From: Candidatus Nanobsidianus stetteri
GTDB lineage: Archaea; Nanobdellota; Nanobdellia; Nanobdellales; Nanobdellaceae
Assembly: GCF_003086415.1 (NCBI RefSeq)
Contig: NZ_QEFP02000017.1
Coordinates: 1 to 9,569 of the forward strand
DNA: 9,569 bases
Direction of reading: 5' to 3'
Shown here piece by piece: positions 1 to 9,569 of the stretch (its first letter is position 1; every line of letters begins with the position of its first letter). The translations under genes and the position numbers were made by a program. The notes below the pieces were generated by a model. The model did no database searches and was not told the DNA's origin. It worked only from the letters and a program-made list of their open reading frames with translations.

Positions 1-55
1 ATTTAGTATTTCAAATAAAATACCCCCATCATCTTTATATAAATATAATGTTTTC
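1..55. repeat. Left copy of a perfect 55-bp terminal inverted repeat (partner 9515-9569)
   Basis: The reverse complement of 1-55 (GAAAACATTATATTTATATAAAGATGATGGGGGTATTTTATTTGAAATACTAAAT) matches 9515-9569 at every base, compared by hand. Identity stops at the next inward base (pos 56 versus 9514). Outward extent is unknown because the window ends. Confidence 0.95.
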
Positions 56-911
56 CATACAATCCTGGAGCAACTGAATTTGCAATCAAACTTAACACAT
101 CTGTAGAATTTGCCAATTCTCTTATTTTTCTCTCATCCTCTGGAGATATTGATATATCTTCAACATCTTTATCTACAGGTTCAATATAAATTGCATCTAT
201 ATATAAATCCAATATTGCTTTAAGATTTGAATTTTTTAATTCTTTTACAATTCCGTATATTTTAACCCTTATTCCTGGTAATGTTTTCCTTTCCATTCTA
301 GGTTCACATAGATCTTCCTTTAATATTACAGTAATTTGGGCGGGTTGTTCACCTTTTTCAATTTGATCTGCAGGTTCTTCAATTAATAATCTTTGTATAT
401 CTATTGTTTCATGATCTGTTTCAATAAATTTTCCCTTTGTACCACCGCATACAGGACATTTCTTTGGCTTTTCTATTACGAAATTCTTATTTTCAACCCA
501 AAATTCTCCTCCACAGTCTTCATGTAAATATTTTGTTTTTATAATAAATGGCCTTACTTCTGAAGACACTTTTATTATACCTTCAGCCTGTATTAATTTA
601 TCTTTATGTTCAGATCTAATATCTCTTATCCTTAAATATCTTAAACTTTCTGGAAGATTTTTTATTCTTACCTTTACTTTTCTATCTAATCTTTCGGAAA
701 AATATATACTCATTTGTTCTAAAAATTTTTCTGTTTTATTTAATAAAAGATCTAACTGTTTATTATTTAGGTATGATTTTATTTTCTCATAATCTAGTAT
801 AATAGATTTTTCTTCTTCTCTAATAAATTTTTCAATTTCTTCTTTTGAAGCATCAAAAATTTGCCCCAAAAATCCTACATCTAAAATTTCAACTTCCTTA
901 GCATTATCCAT
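3..911 (-). CDS. mcm: MCM replicative helicase, N-terminal domain only (ORF stops before the AAA+ ATPase module)
   Basis: The 302-aa ORF has the MCM N-terminal layout: a helical subdomain, a C4 zinc motif (CGGEFW...CPVCGG), the OB-fold region (IDIQRLLIEEPADQIEKGEQPAQITVILKEDL, PGIRVKIYGIV), and the N-C linker ending SLIANSVAPGLYG (compare SIAPSIYG). After YG the ORF enters the 55-bp repeat, reads KHYIYIKMMGVFYLKY and stops at TAA (rc of 3-5). No Walker A/B or arginine-finger sequence is present. Confidence 0.85.
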   Translation of the reverse strand: MDNAKEVEILDVGFLGQIFDASKEEIEKFIREEEKSIILDYEKIKSYLNNKQLDLLLNKTEKFLEQMSIYFSERLDRKVKVRIKNLPESLRYLRIRDIRSEHKDKLIQAEGIIKVSSEVRPFIIKTKYLHEDCGGEFWVENKNFVIEKPKKCPVCGGTKGKFIETDHETIDIQRLLIEEPADQIEKGEQPAQITVILKEDLCEPRMERKTLPGIRVKIYGIVKELKNSNLKAILDLYIDAIYIEPVDKDVEDISISPEDERKIRELANSTDVLSLIANSVAPGLYGKHYIYIKMMGVFYLKY

Positions 912-977
912 ATATTTATATTACAAAAAATGCATATAAGAAAAAAATAAAAAATTAATAAGCGAAAATATGTATAG

Positions 978-1067
978 GGGCCCGTAGCTCAGAGGTGGAG
1001 CGCCGGCCTTATAAGGCTACGCTCCTAAGAAAGCCGGAGGTCAGGGGTTCGAGTCCCCTCGGGCCCA
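978..1067 (+). tRNA. tRNA-Ile, anticodon UAU, with an 18-nt intron at the canonical 37/38 position
   Basis: Hand-folded cloverleaf. Acceptor stem GGGCCCG/CGGGCCC with discriminator A1067. D arm GCTC-AGAGGTG-GAGC. Anticodon stem CCGGC (1003-1007)/GCCGG (1033-1037). Spliced loop C-T-TAT-A-A, anticodon TAT at 1010-1012. Variable loop AGGTC. T arm AGGGG-TTCGAGT-CCCCT. CCA is not encoded. The body resembles archaeal tRNA-Ile (GGGCCCGTAGCTCAG...). Confidence 0.85.
1014..1031 (+). other. Archaeal bulge-helix-bulge tRNA intron (18 nt)
   Basis: The central 4-bp helix is C1008-U-U-A1011 paired with U1026-A-A-G1029. It is flanked by 3-nt bulges U1012-A-A1014 and A1030-A-A1032. The symmetric predicted cut sites (1013|1014 and 1031|1032) restore a 7-nt anticodon loop. 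The inner helix is weak (G1015-G1016 with C1024-C1025), so the motif is relaxed on the intron side. Confidence 0.7.
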
Positions 1068-1073
1068 TAATAA

Positions 1074-1093
1074 TTTATTTGGAAGAATTTTTT
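1074..1093 (+). terminator. Oligo-T tract downstream of the tRNA (putative archaeal terminator)
   Basis: TTTATTT (1074-1080) and T6 (1088-1093) lie within 30 nt of the tRNA 3' end. Archaeal RNAP terminates at oligo-T runs, but T runs are common in AT-rich DNA like this. Confidence 0.3.
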
Positions 1094-1193
1094 ATTCTAT
1101 ATATCCAGTAATTTATTCAAGGGATAAGATTTCTTGAATGATATTGAAAAACACTCCGAAAAAAATAAATAGTTAATTATTTAAAAATTAATT

Positions 1194-2630
1194 ATGAATT
1201 CGAATAACCTATCGTTGCTGGTCGTCGTTTTAGGAACTTTAATGTCTGCTGTGGATGCAACTATTGTAATCTTAGCAATCCCATCTATTGCTCAAGACTT
1301 GCATACTAACCTTTACGTAATTATTTGGGTTATCATAATTTACCTTCTAGTTATAGCGGTCTTTACAACTCAGTTAGGTAGATTAGGTGATATTTATGGC
1401 AGATCTCGCTTTTATAATTTAGGATTTGTAATATTTACAATAGGTTCAATTCTCTGTGGTGCAGCTCCTGACGCAATTTCCTTAATAATATTTAGAGGTG
1501 TTCAAGGATTAGGGGCTTCAATGATGCAAGCTAATTCTGGAGCTATAATTGCTGATATATTCCCCCCAAATCAAAGGGGTAAAGCTTATGGATATAATTC
1601 AATAGGTTGGAACGCTGGAGCTACTTTAGGGATAGTTTTAGGGGGTTTTATAACAACCTTCCTGGGCTGGAGATATATATTTTATATTAACGTTCCAATA
1701 GGAATCGTTGCTATAATATTGGGATTAAAGTATATAAAAGATCGGGAAAGAAGAAATACTAAACTAGATATTATAGGTATGCTAAGTTTATTGACTTCAC
1801 TATCTTTAATATCCTATGGAGCTGCTGATATTGCAGGAGAAGGTGTGAGTTTATTAAATGTTTACTTAATCTCTGCCGGTTTAATTATATTATTAGGATT
1901 TATATTGGTTGAAAAGAGACAGCAGTTTCCTATAATAGATCTGAAAGCTTTTAAAGCAAATAAAGTATTTACATATTCTCTATTTGCATCATTTCTTCAA
2001 ACAATGGGTTATTTATCCACAGCATTTATTATAATAATGTATCTTCAAGGGATTAGAGGTTTATCACCTTTCGAAGCATCCTTACTATTAGTTCCAGGTT
2101 ATGTTTTAGCCAGTTTAGTTGCACCATTTACCGGAAGATTATCTGATAAGATAGGTTCCAGAATACCTGCTACAATTGGATTGGCTTTAATGATGTTAGC
2201 TATTTTCATATATTTACACCTTTCAATCAATACTCCTTTATACGTTATTATAATCGCTTCAACAATAGGCGGTTTAGGTTCTTCTCTATTCTTCCCAGCC
2301 AATAATAGCGCTATAATGGCTAATGCACCCAGAGGATTTTATGGCGGTGCTTCTGGTTTAGCCAGAACTTTATCAAATATAGGGACCCTTTTAAGTTACG
2401 TTATAGCAATAAGCATATCCTCTGTTACTGTTCCTAGATATGTTGCATTTGAAGTGTTCCTGGGAACTACAAATTTAATAGGTGGTGTGGCCAGTTCTTT
2501 CTTAACAGGTTTAAAGTCAGCTCTCTATGTATCTTTAGGAATATTATCTATTGCACTAGTTTTATCCGCATTAAGAGGTAAAGAAGATAGAAAGCAATTA
2601 TTACAGGTAGATCAAAGTAATAGTCAATAA
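1194..2630 (+). CDS. Major facilitator superfamily transporter, DHA2 (EmrB/QacA-like, 14-TMS) drug/H+ antiporter family
   Basis: The 478-aa protein is highly hydrophobic. It opens with the typical DHA2 sequence [27 protein letters not shown] motif A ([11 protein letters not shown]) lies between TM2 and TM3. [13 protein letters not shown] and [12 protein letters not shown] are hallmarks of the EmrB/QacA subfamily. Confidence 0.9.
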
Positions 2631-2803
2631 AATTTTATCCAATCTTCTCTCTTTAATTTAATTAATTGTTAATGGCTAAGTTTAAGCTTATAAGTTATTA
2701 TCTAAGAACATACAATATTTATTTTCCGGCTTGAATTTGTAGGGATATTTATAGAGTTACAATTGCTGCTGAATTGTTAGCAAAGGGTATAATATAATTT
2801 TAC

Positions 2804-2819
2804 TATTCAATATTGAATA
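2804..2819. promoter_or_regulatory. Perfect 16-bp palindrome TATTCAATATTGAATA upstream of the 2H/MPP gene (candidate operator)
   Basis: The sequence is self-complementary over 16 bp and lies 55-70 bp upstream of the ATG at 2874, in a 243-bp intergenic spacer. There is no other support, and AT-rich DNA produces palindromes by chance. Confidence 0.2.
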
Positions 2820-2873
2820 AAATAAATGCATGAGAACACTCGCTTTTAATAATAAGAGAAATATAAAAATATA

Positions 2874-3134
2874 ATGAGAAATAATTATATCATAGAAATA
2901 AGACCAGTTCTAGAGAAATATAAATTAAAACAAATAATGCGAAAGGTTAGTTCTCTAAGTCATTTGAAAGTACATAGGGTACCTCATATTACTCTCGTAT
3001 ATAATTTCCGACCTTTAGTAGCTCCTCTTAAAATAATGGAAGTCATTAAAGAAATATCTAATAAATATAGCAATTTAGAATTTTATTACGATAAATATGA
3101 GATAAAAAAAAAAGAAAAAAGGGATATACAATAG
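2874..3134 (+). CDS. N-terminal fragment of a 2H phosphoesterase (LigT/2'-5' RNA ligase-like cyclic phosphodiesterase) domain
   Basis: The 86-aa ORF carries the first H-x-T-x motif (PHITL, 2985-2996) in the usual context. The ORF ends shortly after an A10 tract, and the rest of the domain continues in another frame. Confidence 0.6.
   Translation: MRNNYIIEIRPVLEKYKLKQIMRKVSSLSHLKVHRVPHITLVYNFRPLVAPLKIMEVIKEISNKYSNLEFYYDKYEIKKKEKRDIQ
3104..3120 (+). other. A10-G-A6 homopolymer tract containing an A-AAA-AAA slippery heptamer; point of the frame change
   Basis: The zero frame reads ATA AAA AAA AAA GAA AAA AGG GAT ATA CAA TAG. The -1 frame is open from 3101 (the preceding TGA is at 3098-3100) and reads ...KKKRKKGYTIALGIRP..., continuing to 4036. 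Confidence 0.6.
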
Positions 3135-3340
3135 CCTTAGGTATAAGACCTAATAATGAACTTCTTCAATTTAGAGAAGACCTTTATAAAAGTCTAAAAA
3201 ATTATATAAAAGAAAGATCTGATGTTAAATTCTATAATGAAAACTTCTGGTTTCATGCCGGCATTTCTTTTCATTTATCATATAAAGTAGTAAAAAATAT
3301 TTTAAACAATAAAGAAATACTCAAAATTTTATCTCGTTTT

Positions 3341-4036
3341 TTGTATAAAGCCAAGGTATTAAGGATAACACTCGTAAATGCAGGTAAAATAGTCTATGAG
3401 TACGATGTATTAAATAAGAAAATTCTCAATAGGTCAGAGGCACTATCATTAGTTGAACTAGAGAAAACATATAAGAAATATAGGGAAAAGTTCCTAAAAA
3501 TAGAAGTAAACCCTAAAAGTTTAGATAAAATATTGTTCATAGCTGACACACATTTTGGACATAAAAATATAATTAAATATTCTGCAAGGCCTTTCATAGA
3601 CGTTATTACAATGAACGAACACATAAAAAATAAGTGGAATGAAATGATATCTAACGAAGACATAGTTTATATAATAGGGGATTTTGCTAGAAGGGATTTT
3701 AAAAAATACGTTAATTTACTAAATGGAAAAAAGATCTTTATACAAGGTAATCATGATCCTCCAGAGATAGGAGTAAAACAATTAGAATTACAACTAAACA
3801 ATTATAAATTCATACTCTCACACTATCCAACTAATTTGAATTCACATAATGCGTGGCTAATCCATGGTCATGTGCATAATAACAGACTGAGAGAATATCC
3901 ATTCATTAACTCTAAAAAGAGGACAATTAATGTTGGTGTTGACTTAACAAAATTTTACCCTGTAAACATGAAATGGATACTTGATCTAATAGAAACTAAA
4001 AGAGACTATTTATATTTACCATCTAAAATTATTTAA
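3341..4036 (+). CDS. Calcineurin-like metallophosphoesterase domain protein (tracked from TTG 3341; the same frame is open from 3101 and encodes the second half of the 2H domain)
   Basis: The metallophosphoesterase motifs appear in order: LFIADTHFGH (3545-3562), YIIGDF, IQGNHD, LSHYP, IHGHVH. Upstream in the same frame, 3101-3340 has no ATG or GTG and encodes LLQFREDLYKSL...FWFHAGISFHLSY, which includes the second 2H motif HLSY (3272-3283). Confidence 0.8.
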   Translation: MYKAKVLRITLVNAGKIVYEYDVLNKKILNRSEALSLVELEKTYKKYREKFLKIEVNPKSLDKILFIADTHFGHKNIIKYSARPFIDVITMNEHIKNKWNEMISNEDIVYIIGDFARRDFKKYVNLLNGKKIFIQGNHDPPEIGVKQLELQLNNYKFILSHYPTNLNSHNAWLIHGHVHNNRLREYPFINSKKRTINVGVDLTKFYPVNMKWILDLIETKRDYLYLPSKII

Positions 4037-4194
4037 GGGGAAGAAAATTATCATAGATTGCACAAATTAAAATTAATTATAACTTAATAGCTTTTAGAAA
4101 TAGTGGAATAAAGAAAAATAATCTTCTAACATGTTGATGAAGGTTCGGAGTTTAACCCTCTCAGATCAATAAAATTTTAGAAGTATTTAAATTA

Positions 4195-4211
4195 AAATAA
4201 AATTAAAAAAT
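4195..4211 (-). terminator. Oligo-T tract directly after the aEF-1alpha stop codon (putative terminator)
   Basis: The minus strand reads ATTTTTTAATTTTATTT immediately 3' of the TAA stop (rc of 4212-4214). Confidence 0.3.
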
Positions 4212-5543
4212 TTACTTTAGTTGTATTTGCTTTTCTTTTACACTTAATACCTGTCCAATTCCAATTGTTTTATTCATATCTCTAATTGCAAATCTTCCCA
4301 AAGATGTGTTTGGGAAATCTTCGAATCTTTCTACTACTAATGGTTTTGTTGGTACAAACTTTACAATTGCTGCATCTCCAGTCTTTAAGAATTGTGGATT
4401 CTTTTCAACTTCTTGTCCAGTTCTTGGATCTATTTTTGATTGTATTTCTGCAATTTTACATGCTACCGCTGCAGTATGTATATGTATTACTGGCGTATAT
4501 CCTACAGCAACTGCAGATGGATGATATAGTACATAAATTCTTGCAGTAAATTCTTCTGCTAATTTTGGTAATGGTTCTCCCAATTTTCCACATACATCAC
4601 CTCTTAATATATCACCACTTTCTGGTCCTTTAACGTTAAATCCAATATTGTCTCCTGGTAATGCTTCATCCAATTTTTCATGATGCATTTCTATAGATTT
4701 TACTTCACCTACAACACCGTTTGGTTTCTTTGATGGTAAGAATATTACTTTGTCGCCTGGTTTTAATCTTCCAGATTCTACTTTTCCAGTTGGTACAAGT
4801 CCTACACCTTTAATATTATATACATCACCAATTGGTATTCTTAATGGTTTATCTACCAATCTTGGAGGTTCATCTAATAGATCAAATGCTTCATATATTG
4901 TTGGACCATTGTACCATGGCATTTTTTGTGATTTTTGTGTTACATTTTCATCTGATGTGTATGCAGCAACTGGAACAATTGCTTTTATTTGTTTTTCAGT
5001 ATAACCAATTTGTTTTGCCAATGTTAATACCATATTCTTTATCTGTTCATATCTCTTTTGATCATAATTTGCAGCATCCATCTTTGATATTGCAACAATA
5101 ATTTGTGGGATTCCCAATGTTCTTAATAATAATAGGTGCTCTCTTCCCTGTCCTTCTGGACTCAATGCTGTTTCTGCTTCACCAGGTGCTGCAGAAACTA
5201 CTAATATTGCTGCATCAGATTGTGCAGTACCGCTAATCATATTCTTTATAAAGTCTCTATGACCTGGAGCATCTAATATTGTTAACATATATTTCTTTGC
5301 AGGTATTTTAATTGCAGCTACATCAATTGTTAATCCTCTCTTTCTCTCTTCTATTGATTTATCCATTAAGAATGCTAAATAGTCTGTTTCCTTTCCAAGT
5401 TCCTTTGCTATATTCTTTAATTCTTCTAATACTTTCTGATCTATTAAATTCAAAGATACCATTAGCCTTCCTACTAATGTTGATTTTCCATTATCTACAT
5501 GCCCTACTACTATCAAATTAATATGTGGTTTTTCTCTTGCCAT
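4212..5543 (-). CDS. tuf: Translation elongation factor aEF-1alpha (EF-Tu family GTPase)
   Basis: 443 aa with G1 GHVDNGKST, G2 region RGLTID, G3 DAPGH and a G4 SKMD variant of NKMD. The domain II/III sequences (PLRIPIGDVYNIKGVGLVPTGKVESG, GFNVKG, RFAIRD) are typical of archaeal EF-1alpha. GC content is visibly higher than in neighbouring genes, as expected for a highly expressed gene. Confidence 0.97.
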   Translation of the reverse strand: MAREKPHINLIVVGHVDNGKSTLVGRLMVSLNLIDQKVLEELKNIAKELGKETDYLAFLMDKSIEERKRGLTIDVAAIKIPAKKYMLTILDAPGHRDFIKNMISGTAQSDAAILVVSAAPGEAETALSPEGQGREHLLLLRTLGIPQIIVAISKMDAANYDQKRYEQIKNMVLTLAKQIGYTEKQIKAIVPVAAYTSDENVTQKSQKMPWYNGPTIYEAFDLLDEPPRLVDKPLRIPIGDVYNIKGVGLVPTGKVESGRLKPGDKVIFLPSKKPNGVVGEVKSIEMHHEKLDEALPGDNIGFNVKGPESGDILRGDVCGKLGEPLPKLAEEFTARIYVLYHPSAVAVGYTPVIHIHTAAVACKIAEIQSKIDPRTGQEVEKNPQFLKTGDAAIVKFVPTKPLVVERFEDFPNTSLGRFAIRDMNKTIGIGQVLSVKEKQIQLK

Positions 5544-5578
5544 TTAAGATTATATTTATAAAAAAATTTATATATAAT

Positions 5579-6487
5579 TCAGCCAGATACTAAAGGTTGT
5601 AATATATTATTAAAGAAACTATATGGCAAAGCCCCTGCAAACTCAAACATTATATAATTATGATCTGGTGTTGTATATACTGAAGGACTTAATCCATATT
5701 GTTTTAATTGATTTAATGCATTATTAACTTGCTGAACTGTTTGGAATGTAATTGATGATGTCTTTACAGCTATTATAAATGTTGGGGTTCCATCAATTCC
5801 ATATTCACTTGCGTCATAATTTTCTTCATTATATATTTGGGAATAATATTCTGAACTATTTACACATGAATCTATTTCATTAACATTTAATCCCAAAGCC
5901 TGAGCTTCTTCATTAAATACATTGTATACATCTTGTTGATTTGATAAAGTATCCCATGATATATTTTGCATTTGATTATACCAGCTCCAATTTGCAAATT
6001 CTTCCCATGTATTAAATCCATACAATGTATATACACATGTTAAATATTGTGATGTTATATTTGCATATGGATGTATTTGATATAGTGGGAAATTTACATA
6101 TACCCATGCTATTTTTCCATTATCTATATAATTTTGCTCAATTTGTGGAAATGTTTGTAAATAAAATAGATCACAATATGGACATGCATAATCCGAGAAT
6201 TCATATACAATAACATTTGAATTATTTGGATTTCCATATACTGGATCTATATTTGTAATATTTGGCAATGGTACTTGTGGTAATGTTTGTAAATATGCTT
6301 GTAATTCATTTGAAGAACTACTAGATGATCCATATACTTTTATATTTGATATTGAATTTGCTATAATATAAGCTCCTATAATTATTGATATTGCCAATAT
6401 TATAAATCCTATTATTATTGATTTCTCTAAATTAAGGTTGAAATTCGATTCTTTCTTTTCTTCATTTTTTTCTTTTTCATTTTCCAT
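5579..6487 (-). CDS. Membrane-anchored DsbA-family thiol:disulfide oxidoreductase (thioredoxin fold, CPYC active site)
   Basis: The 302-aa protein has a charged N-terminus, then one TM helix (IIIGFIILAISIIIGAYIIA), then a Ser-rich linker. The DsbA-type active site is EFSDYACPYC (CPYC = rc of 6173-6184). The cis-Pro loop region is YGIDGTPTFII. Stop codon is TGA. Confidence 0.8.
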   Translation of the reverse strand: MENEKEKNEEKKESNFNLNLEKSIIIGFIILAISIIIGAYIIANSISNIKVYGSSSSSSNELQAYLQTLPQVPLPNITNIDPVYGNPNNSNVIVYEFSDYACPYCDLFYLQTFPQIEQNYIDNGKIAWVYVNFPLYQIHPYANITSQYLTCVYTLYGFNTWEEFANWSWYNQMQNISWDTLSNQQDVYNVFNEEAQALGLNVNEIDSCVNSSEYYSQIYNEENYDASEYGIDGTPTFIIAVKTSSITFQTVQQVNNALNQLKQYGLSPSVYTTPDHNYIMFEFAGALPYSFFNNILQPLVSG

Positions 6488-6515
6488 TCAAAATATTTTA
6501 ATAAAAGATTTTTAT

Positions 6516-6674
6516 TTATTTAGATTCATTACTTTCAAGTAAATAAAATATTCCCATTATAAATGGTATTATTGATAAAGTTTTTGAATGAGTTAATACA
6601 TAAGTTAAAATTCCTAACAAAATTATTATCCCAAATATTAGCATATCCATTTTGTTTATTTTTATCATAATCAT
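6516..6674 (-). CDS. Small hypothetical membrane protein (52 aa, two hydrophobic segments), not in the supplied ORF track
   Basis: Hand translation gives MIMIKINKMDMLIFGIIILLGILTYVLTHSKTLSIIPFIMGIFYLLESNESK*. It is on the same strand as the DsbA-like gene and 28 bp upstream of it. An open 52-codon frame is moderately unlikely by chance in stop-rich AT-rich DNA. There is no homology support. Confidence 0.4.
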   Translation of the reverse strand: MIMIKINKMDMLIFGIIILLGILTYVLTHSKTLSIIPFIMGIFYLLESNESK

Positions 6675-6740
6675 TATTGTAATAAAACATCTTATATACT
6701 TTATTTTAAATATATAAATTTATGTTAGAATATCGGATCT

Positions 6741-9569
6741 ATGAACATGACTTGGACTAGAAATATAGAAGAAGAAATAAAAAAATTCTGGAAGGAGAAT
6801 TATATATATGAAAAATGGATTTTAAAGAATGAGAAAAATAAAAGATATATATTTTTAGAGGGTCCACCATATACAACAGGTTCTCCACATATGGGACATG
6901 CATATAATAGAACAATTAAAGATATTGTATTAAGATATTATCAAAAGAAAGGATTTAATGTATGGAATCAGGCTGGTTTTGATATGCATGGACTACCAAT
7001 TGAAGTAAAAGTTGAGGAAAAGATGAAGATTAGAGATAAAAGAGAAATAGAGAAAATTGGTGTTGATAAATTTATTAAAGAATGTTTTAATTTTGCATAT
7101 GGATCAATGAAGGATTTTACAAAATTCTATGAAGATATGGCACATTGGCAGGATATAGATAACCCATATTTACCAATTAAAAATGAATTTATTGAAAGGG
7201 TATGGGAAGCTTTAACAAAGGGTTATGAAAATAAATTAATATATAAAGAAAAGAAACCTGTTTGGTGGTGTCCTCATTGTCAAACATCATTATCAAAACA
7301 GGAAATAGATTTGGGATATGAAGATCCTTTATATAAAAAAGAAATATCAAATGCAATTTATGTAAAGTTTAAATCAAAAGATATGGAAAATACATATTAT
7401 ATAATATGGACCACTACTCCATGGACATTATTATATAATTTAGGTATTATGGTAAATCCTGAAATAAAATATGTAAAAATAAAGGTTCCAAAGATTTATG
7501 TTGAAGAATTAGAATTAGATTATAATAATCATAAAATTATAAAAATGAATATTAAGAGAGAAAATAATTATGAATATTGGATTGTTGCAAAAGATATATT
7601 AGAAAAATTAATGAGTAAATTAAATATTGAATATGAAATAGTAGATGAATTTTATGGAAAAGATTTAGAATTTAAAGAATATGAACCTTTATTCTATGAT
7701 GAATTAAAGGATTATATAGAAAAACTTAAATCAGAAAGTAGTGGAGTATTTAGGATTTGGCTATCAAAAGAATATGTAAATACACAGGAAGGTACTGGTT
7801 TGGTCCATTCAGCCCCAGGTTGTGGTTTTGAAGATTATGAAGTTGGTAAAAAATATAATGTGCTTCCATTTAATACAACAGATGAGACAGGAACTATTCT
7901 AAATATAAAATATTTTGAGGGATGGGTTGCAAAGAAAGATGATTATAAATTTATATTAGAAGTATTAAAGAAAAAAGCTTTGATATATTTTGAATGGTAT
8001 GAACACGATTATCCAATATGTTGGAGATGTAGAAATAGAGTAATTGTTAGATCTCCAGAACAAATATTCATTAATATATCTTCAATAAAACCAAAAGCAT
8101 TATTAGATATTGAAAATGTTAATTTTATACCAGAAGCTGCAAAAAATGCATTTATAAATACTGTAAAATCTGCACCAGATTGGGTAATATCTAGACAAAG
8201 ATATTGGGGAATTCCAATACCAATGTGGGTTGATAAAAATGGACATGTAAAATTTGTTAGAAATGTTAAAGAATTGGAAAAATTGACTGGATATATATTT
8301 AAGGAAATAATAATAGTAGTAAAGTTTACAGATTATACTGAAAAATTATTGTCAAGATATTTTAAAGAAAATAAAATATATTATGAAAGTGAAATAAATG
8401 ATGTAAATAAACTATATGATGTATTTAATAAATATGAAGATAAATCTATAATAATTGTAAATAATTTTAAATATGATATATTAAATCAAGTAAATGATCT
8501 ATATTATGTAAGAACACATGGATCAAGGGATTATGATATAATATATCTATATAATTATAATTTACATAGACCATATGTAGATAAATTTACATTCAAATGT
8601 GAAATTTGTGGAGAAGAAATGAGAAGAATTCCAGATATATTGGATGTATGGGTAGATTCTGGTTCAGCAACAGTAGCAACAAATACATATCCTGTAGATT
8701 TCATAACAGAAAATTATGATCAAATTAAGGGATGGTTCTATTCTCTAGCAATGGTGGGAGAATTGTATTATAATGATATACCATATAAAAATGTATATGT
8801 TGGTGGATATGTTTTAGATGTATATGGAAGGAAAATGTCAAAATCTTTGGGAAATGTTGTTTCTCCATATGATATAATTAATAAATATGGAGCAGATACA
8901 ATGAGACTATATTTAGGATCAATTGTAGAAGCATATGAAGATATAAAATTAAAATGGGAAGATATAAAAGTTAAATACCAAGTAATAAATACATTATTAA
9001 ATATTTCAACATATTTGGAAGAATATTCTAAATATTATAATATAAATCCTGCAAAAATAAATGTAGAAAATTTGAGATGGGAGGATAGATATATGTTACA
9101 TTTCATAGAAAAAAGTAAAAAAGAAATATATAATGCATTAGATAACTATTTGATATGGAAGGCAGGAAGAATATTACAAGATATGATATTAGAATTATCA
9201 AGATTTTATATAAAAGCTACAAGAGAGAGAATAAAGAGGGAACCTGATAAAGTATTATTTGTAATATATAAATCATTATATAATATAATAAATGTTGGAT
9301 CTATTATAATTCCCTTTATATCAGAATATATTTATCAAAAATTGAGAAATTTATATGGATTAGATGGAGAATCAATAATATTAGAAGACTTACCAAAAGT
9401 TGAAGAACAATATGTAGATGAAAAAATAGAAAAAGAATATGAATTGTTTAATAAAATTGTAGAAAATGCATTAAAACTAAGAAATATGTTAAATATAAAT
9501 ATAAGAAGACCATTGAAAACATTATATTTATATAAAGATGATGGGGGTATTTTATTTGAAATACTAAAT
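6741..9569 (+). CDS. ileS: Isoleucyl-tRNA synthetase (class Ia), 3'-partial; runs off the window end
   Basis: By my hand translation the frame has 943 sense codons and no stop. It is absent from the ORF track only because no stop lies in the window. Start is ATG 6741 or 6747. Motifs: HIGH as PYTTGSPHMGH (HMGH at 6888-6899); CP1 editing motifs WTTTPWTL and GTGLVHSAPGCGFEDY; Zn-type CPHC/CWRC/CEIC pairs; DWVISRQRYWGIPIP; DVWVDSGS; DQIKGWFYS; KMSKS (8832-8846); and the anticodon-binding helical region ending IRRPLKTLYLYKDD. Confidence 0.95.
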   Translation, partial: MNMTWTRNIEEEIKKFWKENYIYEKWILKNEKNKRYIFLEGPPYTTGSPHMGHAYNRTIKDIVLRYYQKKGFNVWNQAGFDMHGLPIEVKVEEKMKIRDKREIEKIGVDKFIKECFNFAYGSMKDFTKFYEDMAHWQDIDNPYLPIKNEFIERVWEALTKGYENKLIYKEKKPVWWCPHCQTSLSKQEIDLGYEDPLYKKEISNAIYVKFKSKDMENTYYIIWTTTPWTLLYNLGIMVNPEIKYVKIKVPKIYVEELELDYNNHKIIKMNIKRENNYEYWIVAKDILEKLMSKLNIEYEIVDEFYGKDLEFKEYEPLFYDELKDYIEKLKSESSGVFRIWLSKEYVNTQEGTGLVHSAPGCGFEDYEVGKKYNVLPFNTTDETGTILNIKYFEGWVAKKDDYKFILEVLKKKALIYFEWYEHDYPICWRCRNRVIVRSPEQIFINISSIKPKALLDIENVNFIPEAAKNAFINTVKSAPDWVISRQRYWGIPIPMWVDKNGHVKFVRNVKELEKLTGYIFKEIIIVVKFTDYTEKLLSRYFKENKIYYESEINDVNKLYDVFNKYEDKSIIIVNNFKYDILNQVNDLYYVRTHGSRDYDIIYLYNYNLHRPYVDKFTFKCEICGEEMRRIPDILDVWVDSGSATVATNTYPVDFITENYDQIKGWFYSLAMVGELYYNDIPYKNVYVGGYVLDVYGRKMSKSLGNVVSPYDIINKYGADTMRLYLGSIVEAYEDIKLKWEDIKVKYQVINTLLNISTYLEEYSKYYNINPAKINVENLRWEDRYMLHFIEKSKKEIYNALDNYLIWKAGRILQDMILELSRFYIKATRERIKREPDKVLFVIYKSLYNIINVGSIIIPFISEYIYQKLRNLYGLDGESIILEDLPKVEEQYVDEKIEKEYELFNKIVENALKLRNMLNINIRRPLKTLYLYKDDGGILFEILN
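9515..9569. repeat. Right copy of the perfect 55-bp terminal inverted repeat (partner 1-55)
   Basis: Exact reverse complement of 1-55. It lies inside the IleRS frame, where it encodes (L)KTLYLYKDDGGILFEILN. Confidence 0.95.

Follow-up and report, generated by a model that had tools for sequence, protein, structure and literature searches.

The window analyzed here (the whole stretch of DNA, 9,569 bp, from 'Candidatus Nanobsidianus stetteri') carries the same 55 bp at both of its ends in opposite orientation, each copy lying inside a coding sequence. The question raised by this locus is whether the repeat belongs to the genome of the organism or to the way in which its DNA was amplified and assembled. 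Read as its reverse complement, the segment 9515-9569 equals positions 1-55 base for base, and identity stops abruptly at the next inward base (C at base 56 versus A), both as stated in an earlier reading of the letters alone (hereafter the sequence-only reading). After this mismatch the following two bases match again, resulting in 58 nt at 98%. The two arms are separated by 9,453-9,460 nt, and no other 55-mer occurs twice within the window; an exact match of 55 bp in 9.6 kb cannot have arisen by chance. The two translations previously given for the repeat were found to be right: the IleRS frame on the plus strand, which starts at 6741 and runs off the right end, reads ...RRPLKTLYLYKDDGGILFEILN, and the minus-strand MCM open reading frame ends in a different frame with ...GKHYIYIKMMGVFYLKY-stop. 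The recorded size of the NCBI contig equals that of the window. The window is therefore the entire contig, as had been suspected, and the repeat is located at true contig ends. The sequence-only reading had offered three options without choosing between them: an inverted duplication, a rearrangement scar and an artefact. Our analysis favours the third and speaks against the first two; the repeat is very probably the joint product of an amplification chimera and an assembly graph node, and thus technical and not biological.

The gene content of the window was determined with Pfam, ARAGORN and Rfam (Table 1), and the Rfam scan of the window returned nothing but the tRNA. Between the repeat arms, Pfam detected only MCM_OB, MFS, metallophosphoesterase, EF-1alpha, DsbA-like thioredoxin and IleRS domains, which are accompanied by a tRNA gene; transposase, integrase, invertase, replication or packaging genes were not detected in the window by Pfam. 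Exact-sequence look-ups identified EF-1alpha as MCC5447261.1 and the IleRS fragment as MCC5447264.1 ('isoleucine--tRNA ligase, partial'). Both records and MCC5447258.1 are located on one 'Candidatus Nanobsidianus stetteri' contig of 9,569 bp.

Table 1. Coordinates of genes and repeat-associated segments in the 9,569-bp window.
Feature	Position	Strand	Remarks
Foreign IleRS 3' coding segment	1-44	-	identical to 9526-9569, attached to MCM in inverted orientation
Chimeric 302-aa ORF	3-911	-	289 aa MCM, 13 aa out-of-frame IleRS, stop
MCM, N-terminal/OB domain only	3-911	-	Pfam
Left microhomology copy, GAAAACATTAT on the minus strand	45-55		last native MCM bases; proposed template-switch point
Native MCM 5' part	45-911	-	codons 1-289, N-terminal and OB domain
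Intron-containing tRNA-Ile(UAU)	978-1067	+	ARAGORN
MFS transporter	1194-2630	+	Pfam
2',5'-RNA-ligase-like/metallophosphoesterase gene	2874-4036	+	Pfam
EF-1alpha	4212-5543	-	Pfam
DsbA-like thioredoxin protein	5579-6487	-	Pfam
IleRS, residues 1-943	6741-9569	+	Pfam
Native repeat copy	9515-9569	+	9515-9525 microhomology; 9526-9569 the sequence that would have been copied onto the MCM end

Several observations were made on the interior of the window. The tRNA gene, which is located between the MCM and MFS genes, contains an 18-nt intron at the canonical 37/38 position (ARAGORN, introns allowed) and scores 64 bits as tRNA in Rfam. It lies at the edge of a variable block of ~3.1 kb (1077-4191) directly downstream, which contains the MFS gene and the RNA-ligase-like/metallophosphoesterase gene. 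This block is missing in the Nanopusillus sp. sequences L003, L004, L006 and L013, in which MCM directly adjoins EF-1alpha; N. acidilobi 7A (L012) has only the MFS part of it. The N. stetteri-clade contigs L001, L007 and L008 carry the full block, part of which is also covered by the shorter L009 and L010. The block is an indel polymorphism beside a tRNA gene, and no integrase was seen. Within the RNA-ligase-like/metallophosphoesterase gene, a +2 frameshift at ~3100-3112 (a run of ten A's versus A7GG in L007) splits the gene into ORFs of 86 aa and 231 aa, while an intact ORF of 386 aa is present in L001, L007 and L008. The frameshift may be a homopolymer error introduced during amplification, sequencing or assembly, or the strain may truly carry a pseudogene here. 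A stretch of ~48 bp in the intergenic region 3' of MFS (2724-2771) has no counterpart in L001 and L007-L010, which carry ~10 unrelated bases in its place; all five alignments break at the same two points. In the metagenome contig L008 (JGI 3300005623, Ga0077576_12429; 2559-3996 and 6281-6894), gene calling broke the MFS gene and the RPA-like gene that lies downstream of MCM into two or three pieces each. Both are single ORFs in L007, L009 and L010, which suggests frameshift errors in the L008 assembly.

The right copy of the repeat is the native one, as proposed in the sequence-only reading. The IleRS fragment (Pfam domains tRNA-synt_1 and Anticodon_1) comprises residues 1-943 of about 1,075 and leaves the contig at its end. 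Its best match, P0001 (1,075 aa, 93% identical), is colinear with it to the last residue. P0001 and six more orthologues are colinear with the window through ...RRPLKTLYLYK(D/E)DG(G/N)ILF(E/D)ILN and then continue with NNDIVELLKDYLNVKEI..., and the full-length cluster members P0128 and P0129 contain exactly the 18 residues of the window, KTLYLYKDDGGILFEILN, followed by NNDIVELLKDYL.... DNA alignments of the IleRS side with L002-L007 likewise extend to base 9569, the last base of the contig, which would be the end of an assembly graph node. The converse assignment, with a native left and a foreign right copy, was ruled out because IleRS is colinear with its orthologues to the last base and MCM is not.

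For the left copy, BLAST homology to the window MCM ends exactly at position 45 in all related assemblies with MCM that were examined (11/11: L001, L003, L004, L006, L007, L008, L009, L010, L011, L012 and L013, where L011 is Nst1, L012 the complete N. acidilobi 7A genome and L013 the MAG RSNS12). The MCM protein of all 11 is full-length, with 666 aa and an AAA+ domain (PF00493, PF17855 and PF21100). Pfam detected only MCM_OB in the window ORF; what is missing corresponds to residues 290-666 of the relatives and comprises the AAA+ ATPase, the lid and the winged-helix domains. The window MCM is identical to that of L001, a Logan contig with an identical EF-1alpha, up to ...GKHY289. After Y289 the 666-aa MCM of L001 goes on with EMIKKAIALQLVSGGKRRKSV... 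into the AAA+ domain, and MCM orthologues have GAAATGATTAAAAAGGCAATTGC... where the window carries a foreign tail. This spurious tail, IYIKMMGVFYLKY-stop, results from reading segment 1-44 in the MCM frame.

The sequence of the relatives that matches 1-44 is IleRS and not MCM: the left end of the window is 100% identical to positions 1387-1441 of L007 (IleRS), and positions 1-58 are 96.6% identical to 3223-3280 of L005 and 91% identical to 12772-12829 of L006. The sequence-only reading had described the left copy as part of the IleRS 3' region, joined to MCM in the same sense and out of frame. This description holds for the outer part of the repeat; the innermost 11 bp (45-55 and 9515-9525, GAAAACATTAT) are native to both genes, and therefore only 1-44 are foreign to MCM. 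The 55 bp of the repeat thus consist of 11 bp common to MCM and IleRS and 44 bp of IleRS. The chimeric ORF was found by exact-sequence look-up as MCC5447258.1, WP_228615482.1 and UniRef100_A0A2T9WKP4. The database entries treat it as a normal complete protein, the first two under the name 'hypothetical protein' and the third as 'MCM OB domain-containing protein'.

Comparison with related genomes gave a consistent picture of the native arrangement. L007 (QEFH01000001.1, GCA_003086475.1; 44,534 bp), which is 97-98.7% identical to the window, is colinear with positions 45-9569 including the MFS block, and contains the 55-mer exactly once, within IleRS. A complete MCM (666 aa) and a complete IleRS (1,075 aa), in divergent orientation and without an inverted copy, are found together on each of four contigs; there, MCM is on the minus strand relative to the window, and IleRS is followed by TBP, a proteasome subunit and others. 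Each related contig contains one intact MCM, and a search of the complete N. acidilobi 7A genome with an MCM pattern gave a single match. The chimeric junction, sought with a degenerate pattern, had no match in the JGI metagenome contigs, which are the source of several contigs of this population, and none among ten related loci (0/10). As controls, the same pattern matched the window once, and the pattern for the native MCM junction matched 7 loci. A 31-mer from the repeat gave 0 matches in the viral, genome and metagenome collections searched.

The anatomy of the junction was resolved by placing the two native sequences side by side. Native MCM reads ...GGATTGTATG, then the 11-mer GAAAACATTAT and then GAAATGATT... 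(in short, ...GGAAAACATTAT followed by GAAATGATT...), and native IleRS reads ...AGACCATT, then the same 11-mer and then ATTTATATAAAGATG.... At the left end of the window the sequence is MCM up to the 11-mer and IleRS beyond it, so that positions 45-911 (MCM, minus strand) pass into the sequence of 9526-9569 (IleRS, plus strand). Immediately ahead of the 11-mer, MCM has G and IleRS has T; the next 55 bases are identical, up to both ends of the contig. The window contains the 11-mer at two sites only, 45 (minus strand) and 9515 (plus strand), in inverted orientation. In L007 both source sites are present on one contig in opposite reading directions, about 9.4 kb apart (10867 and 1441). Two sequences joined at random would have 11 or more bases in common at the junction with a probability of ~1.8e-6, and an 11-bp inverted partner is present for only 3.2% of the positions in the native 9.5 kb. 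Therefore, the join was made by annealing and not by ligation or chance.

We infer that the join arose in vitro during multiple displacement amplification (MDA), and that the DNA used for sequencing contained an inverted chimera of the fold-back type. While copying the minus strand through MCM, a nascent or displaced strand would have ended with ...GAAAACATTAT-3' at position 45. This 3' end would have annealed to the complementary ATAATGTTTTC, 9.46 kb behind it in the same strand (9525-9515, inside IleRS), the annealing partner being either the strand's own 5' part or another displaced copy. Extension from 9526 onward would then have joined MCM codon 289 to IleRS running in the opposite genomic direction. 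Such a product would be the standard inverted chimera of phi29 multiple displacement amplification of single cells, a possibility that the sequence-only reading had named and with which the junction anatomy and the relatives agree. The implied molecule, rc(IleRS 3' end...)-window-(IleRS 3' end...), would account for both contig ends by one event.

The size of the repeat can be explained by the assembly graph. Where two paths of a de Bruijn graph converge, they are merged starting with the first k-mer that they have in common, and contigs are broken at this vertex; for short reads, SPAdes by default goes up to k = 55. In the window the first base common to both paths is the G with which the 11-mer begins, and 55 bases further on both ends of the contig break off at one and the same base of IleRS. 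A de Bruijn assembler with a largest k of 55 would have merged the chimeric and the true IleRS paths at the first shared 55-mer, which consists of the 11 bp of microhomology and the next 44 bp. Cutting the contig at this shared node on both sides would leave an exact 55-bp terminal inverted repeat. The assembler thus appears to have used k = 55, and the earlier remark that 55 looks like an assembler k agrees with the 11 + 44 composition and the common end base. The shared node had also been put forward as the artefact itself, which does not hold, as a node alone is no artefact: a graph with k = 55 cuts a real repeat at the same place too, and the size of 55 is therefore silent on artefact versus real. 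The verdict of an artefact is based on junction anatomy and comparison with relatives, not on repeat size. In the reads, the shared sequence certainly continued outward. Since the contig is unbranched through the junction, the native MCM continuation was missing or pruned in the graph of that assembly. MDA dropout or extreme coverage bias can account for the missing MCM branch; a real truncation in that cell would look alike.

The provenance of the assembly was traced through its sister assembly QEFH01, whose longest contig has the same size (44,534 bp) as the longest scaffold reported for SAG AB-777-O03 (Jarett et al., 2018). QEFI-QEFN, the accessions next to it, are single-cell genomes from SCGC AB-777 (BioProject PRJNA386514); the AB-777 Nanoarchaeota SAGs are about 55-65% complete, and all SAGs were called MDA products (Jarett et al., 2018). 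The window and QEFH01 share their species label and UniProt accession series and differ in strain sequence. On the basis of the species label, the UniProt series A0A2T9W... and the sister assembly, the window assembly is probably a sister SAG, AB-777-F03. The JGI pipeline of that study (k = 25, 55, 95) trimmed contig ends by 200 bp (Jarett et al., 2018) and was ruled out as the source of the window, since it cannot yield untrimmed 55-bp ends. The original Nst1 assembly (Velvet, 7 curated contigs, 24% GC) was ruled out as well. The known pipelines for such SAGs trim contig ends and would have deleted a 55-bp end overlap; the window assembly was evidently left untrimmed, a point against the preferred explanation.

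Taken together, the features that decide for an artefact are the 11-bp microhomology, the inverted orientation and the distance of 9.46 kb, the truncation of an essential single-copy helicase whose gene is intact in 11 relatives, the single 55-mer in L007, a junction seen nowhere else, and a sister assembly that is a single-cell (MDA) genome.

A technical origin other than MDA is very unlikely, although it would have the same outcome, a short-overlap join without biological meaning. The chimera might have been a library or PCR insert formed by template switching between the 11-bp sites, or a computational join, in which gap closing accepts overlaps of ~10 bp between graph tips linked by few read pairs. 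A purely computational mis-join via the 11-bp identity was rejected as the main cause, since 11 bp is far below any usual k (21 or more) and too short for the graph by itself to unite the two paths; with gap closing as its route, such a join is retained as a minor rival. The minimum overlap accepted by the SPAdes gap closer is just below 11 bp and would be slightly exceeded here, and the provenance of the window's own assembly is itself deduced. However, gap closing works on dead-end tips, and the IleRS path is continuous through 9515. Single library chimeras, in turn, are unique and rarely reach assembly depth without prior amplification, and the profile of an inverted, sub-10-kb join with microhomology is specific to MDA.

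A genuine rearrangement in vivo, in this cell or its lineage, is very unlikely. In that case, microhomology-mediated synthesis on a folded-back strand would have mended a break in MCM, and inverted copies of the IleRS 3' region with the DNA downstream of it would lie on both sides of the 9.46-kb block, perhaps in a palindromic molecule outside the chromosome. The letters alone are compatible with this, as a microhomology of 11 bp with inversion is also produced by fold-back repair in vivo, and the contig is without a native MCM branch. However, the replicative helicase would be destroyed because the product is without the whole AAA+ motor; the MCM pattern matched a single site in the complete genome of N. 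acidilobi 7A, and one intact MCM is present in each of the related contigs. Furthermore, the near-identical L007 carries the 55-mer once, the junction is missing from the JGI metagenome contigs that supplied several contigs of this population, and Pfam detected no recombinase, transposase or invertase genes in the block. Inversion of the 9.46-kb block by recombination, which had been raised in the sequence-only reading, found no support. The provenance points to MDA-amplified single cells, in which such joins are routine. It is very unlikely that a cell or a subpopulation of genome copies carried a real fold-back palindromic molecule, formed when a broken MCM healed through self-priming at the 11-bp inverted microhomology, with the IleRS-TBP side duplicated in inverted orientation around a 9.46-kb loop. 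If true, microhomology-mediated fold-back repair or amplification would have been caught in the act in a DPANN archaeon whose repair toolkit is minimal.

We give almost no credence to true terminal inverted repeats of a mobile element, linear plasmid, virus or site-specific invertible segment: the presence of exact inverted copies at the two ends of a whole contig would suit them, but element genes are missing, the housekeeping contents are colinear with the chromosomes of relatives, both copies lie inside coding sequences with one truncating MCM, the 31-mer from the repeat is not found in viral contigs, and the 55-mer region is single-copy inside IleRS in the relatives, and the mobile-element or viral reading was rejected for the first two of these reasons.

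With an MDA chimera as the preferred explanation, neither an invertible segment nor a mobile element nor a gene fusion is present, and the repeat has no biological importance. Its consequences concern annotation. The chimeric ORF has spread in GenBank, RefSeq and UniProt (MCC5447258.1, WP_228615482.1 and A0A2T9WKP4), where it passes for a real short MCM-OB protein. Nanoarchaeota are known for genuinely split genes, and the ORF could mislead work on 'split' or truncated replication genes in this group. In addition, automated tools may misread exact terminal inverted repeats as the mark of a complete linear element. A read-free test for such cases starts with the question whether the repeat size equals a plausible k; alignment of the contig ends to close relatives then reveals the native copy and a short microhomology at the start of the other. 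For the present record a correction is due, in which the left 44 bases are trimmed and the MCM CDS is marked as partial.

Fold-back inversions and palindromic duplications at short inverted microhomologies occur in yeast and tumour genomes. The window resembles them in that a 3' end would fold onto its own strand at a short inverted match and be extended. In vivo fold-back inversions are tolerated or selected in living cells, whereas the event in the window would inactivate an essential single-copy gene, and the window join is found in no independent assembly. Contig-end overlaps of de Bruijn assemblies, in which neighbouring edges have one k-mer vertex in common, share with the repeat that they are exact, are located at the very termini of a whole contig, start from the first base common to converging paths and have an odd size equal to a common k. 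A de Bruijn node marks where two paths merge and leaves unsaid whether the merger is biological. The single-cell assemblies of Nanobsidianus stetteri (Podar et al., 2013; PMC3655853) are similar with respect to the organism group, the MDA single-cell data and the symptom at contig ends. In that work, repetitive regions were given as the cause of the artefacts, and PCR with Sanger sequencing served to correct them; the window, in contrast, comes from a later, uncurated assembly and has an 11-bp microhomology instead of a repeat.

The closest counterpart is the set of chimeras described for MDA of a single cell, in which 85% of 475 chimeras were inverted (Lasken and Stockwell, 2007, BMC Biotechnol 7:19; PMC1855051). 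The inverted ones mostly connected sites less than 10 kb apart, and 93.5% of those had complementarity at the junction; over all chimeras, the reported range of complementarity was 2-21 nt (PMC1855051). As the cause it was proposed that displaced 3' ends prime on nearby single strands, and hairpin self-priming was judged a minor route (Lasken and Stockwell, 2007; PMC1855051). In the window the new template lies upstream of the 3' end, and simple hairpin self-priming would fit too. Unlike the chimeras of that study, the present one is known as an assembled contig only and not from individual reads, and MDA of this sample is deduced from provenance, not documented. The likeness extends to the use of segments from the same genome and to a geometry compatible with priming by a displaced 3' end on a copy of the same strand in single-stranded form. 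With its inverted orientation, its distance of 9.46 kb and its 11 nt of complementarity, the junction fits an MDA chimera on all three counts.
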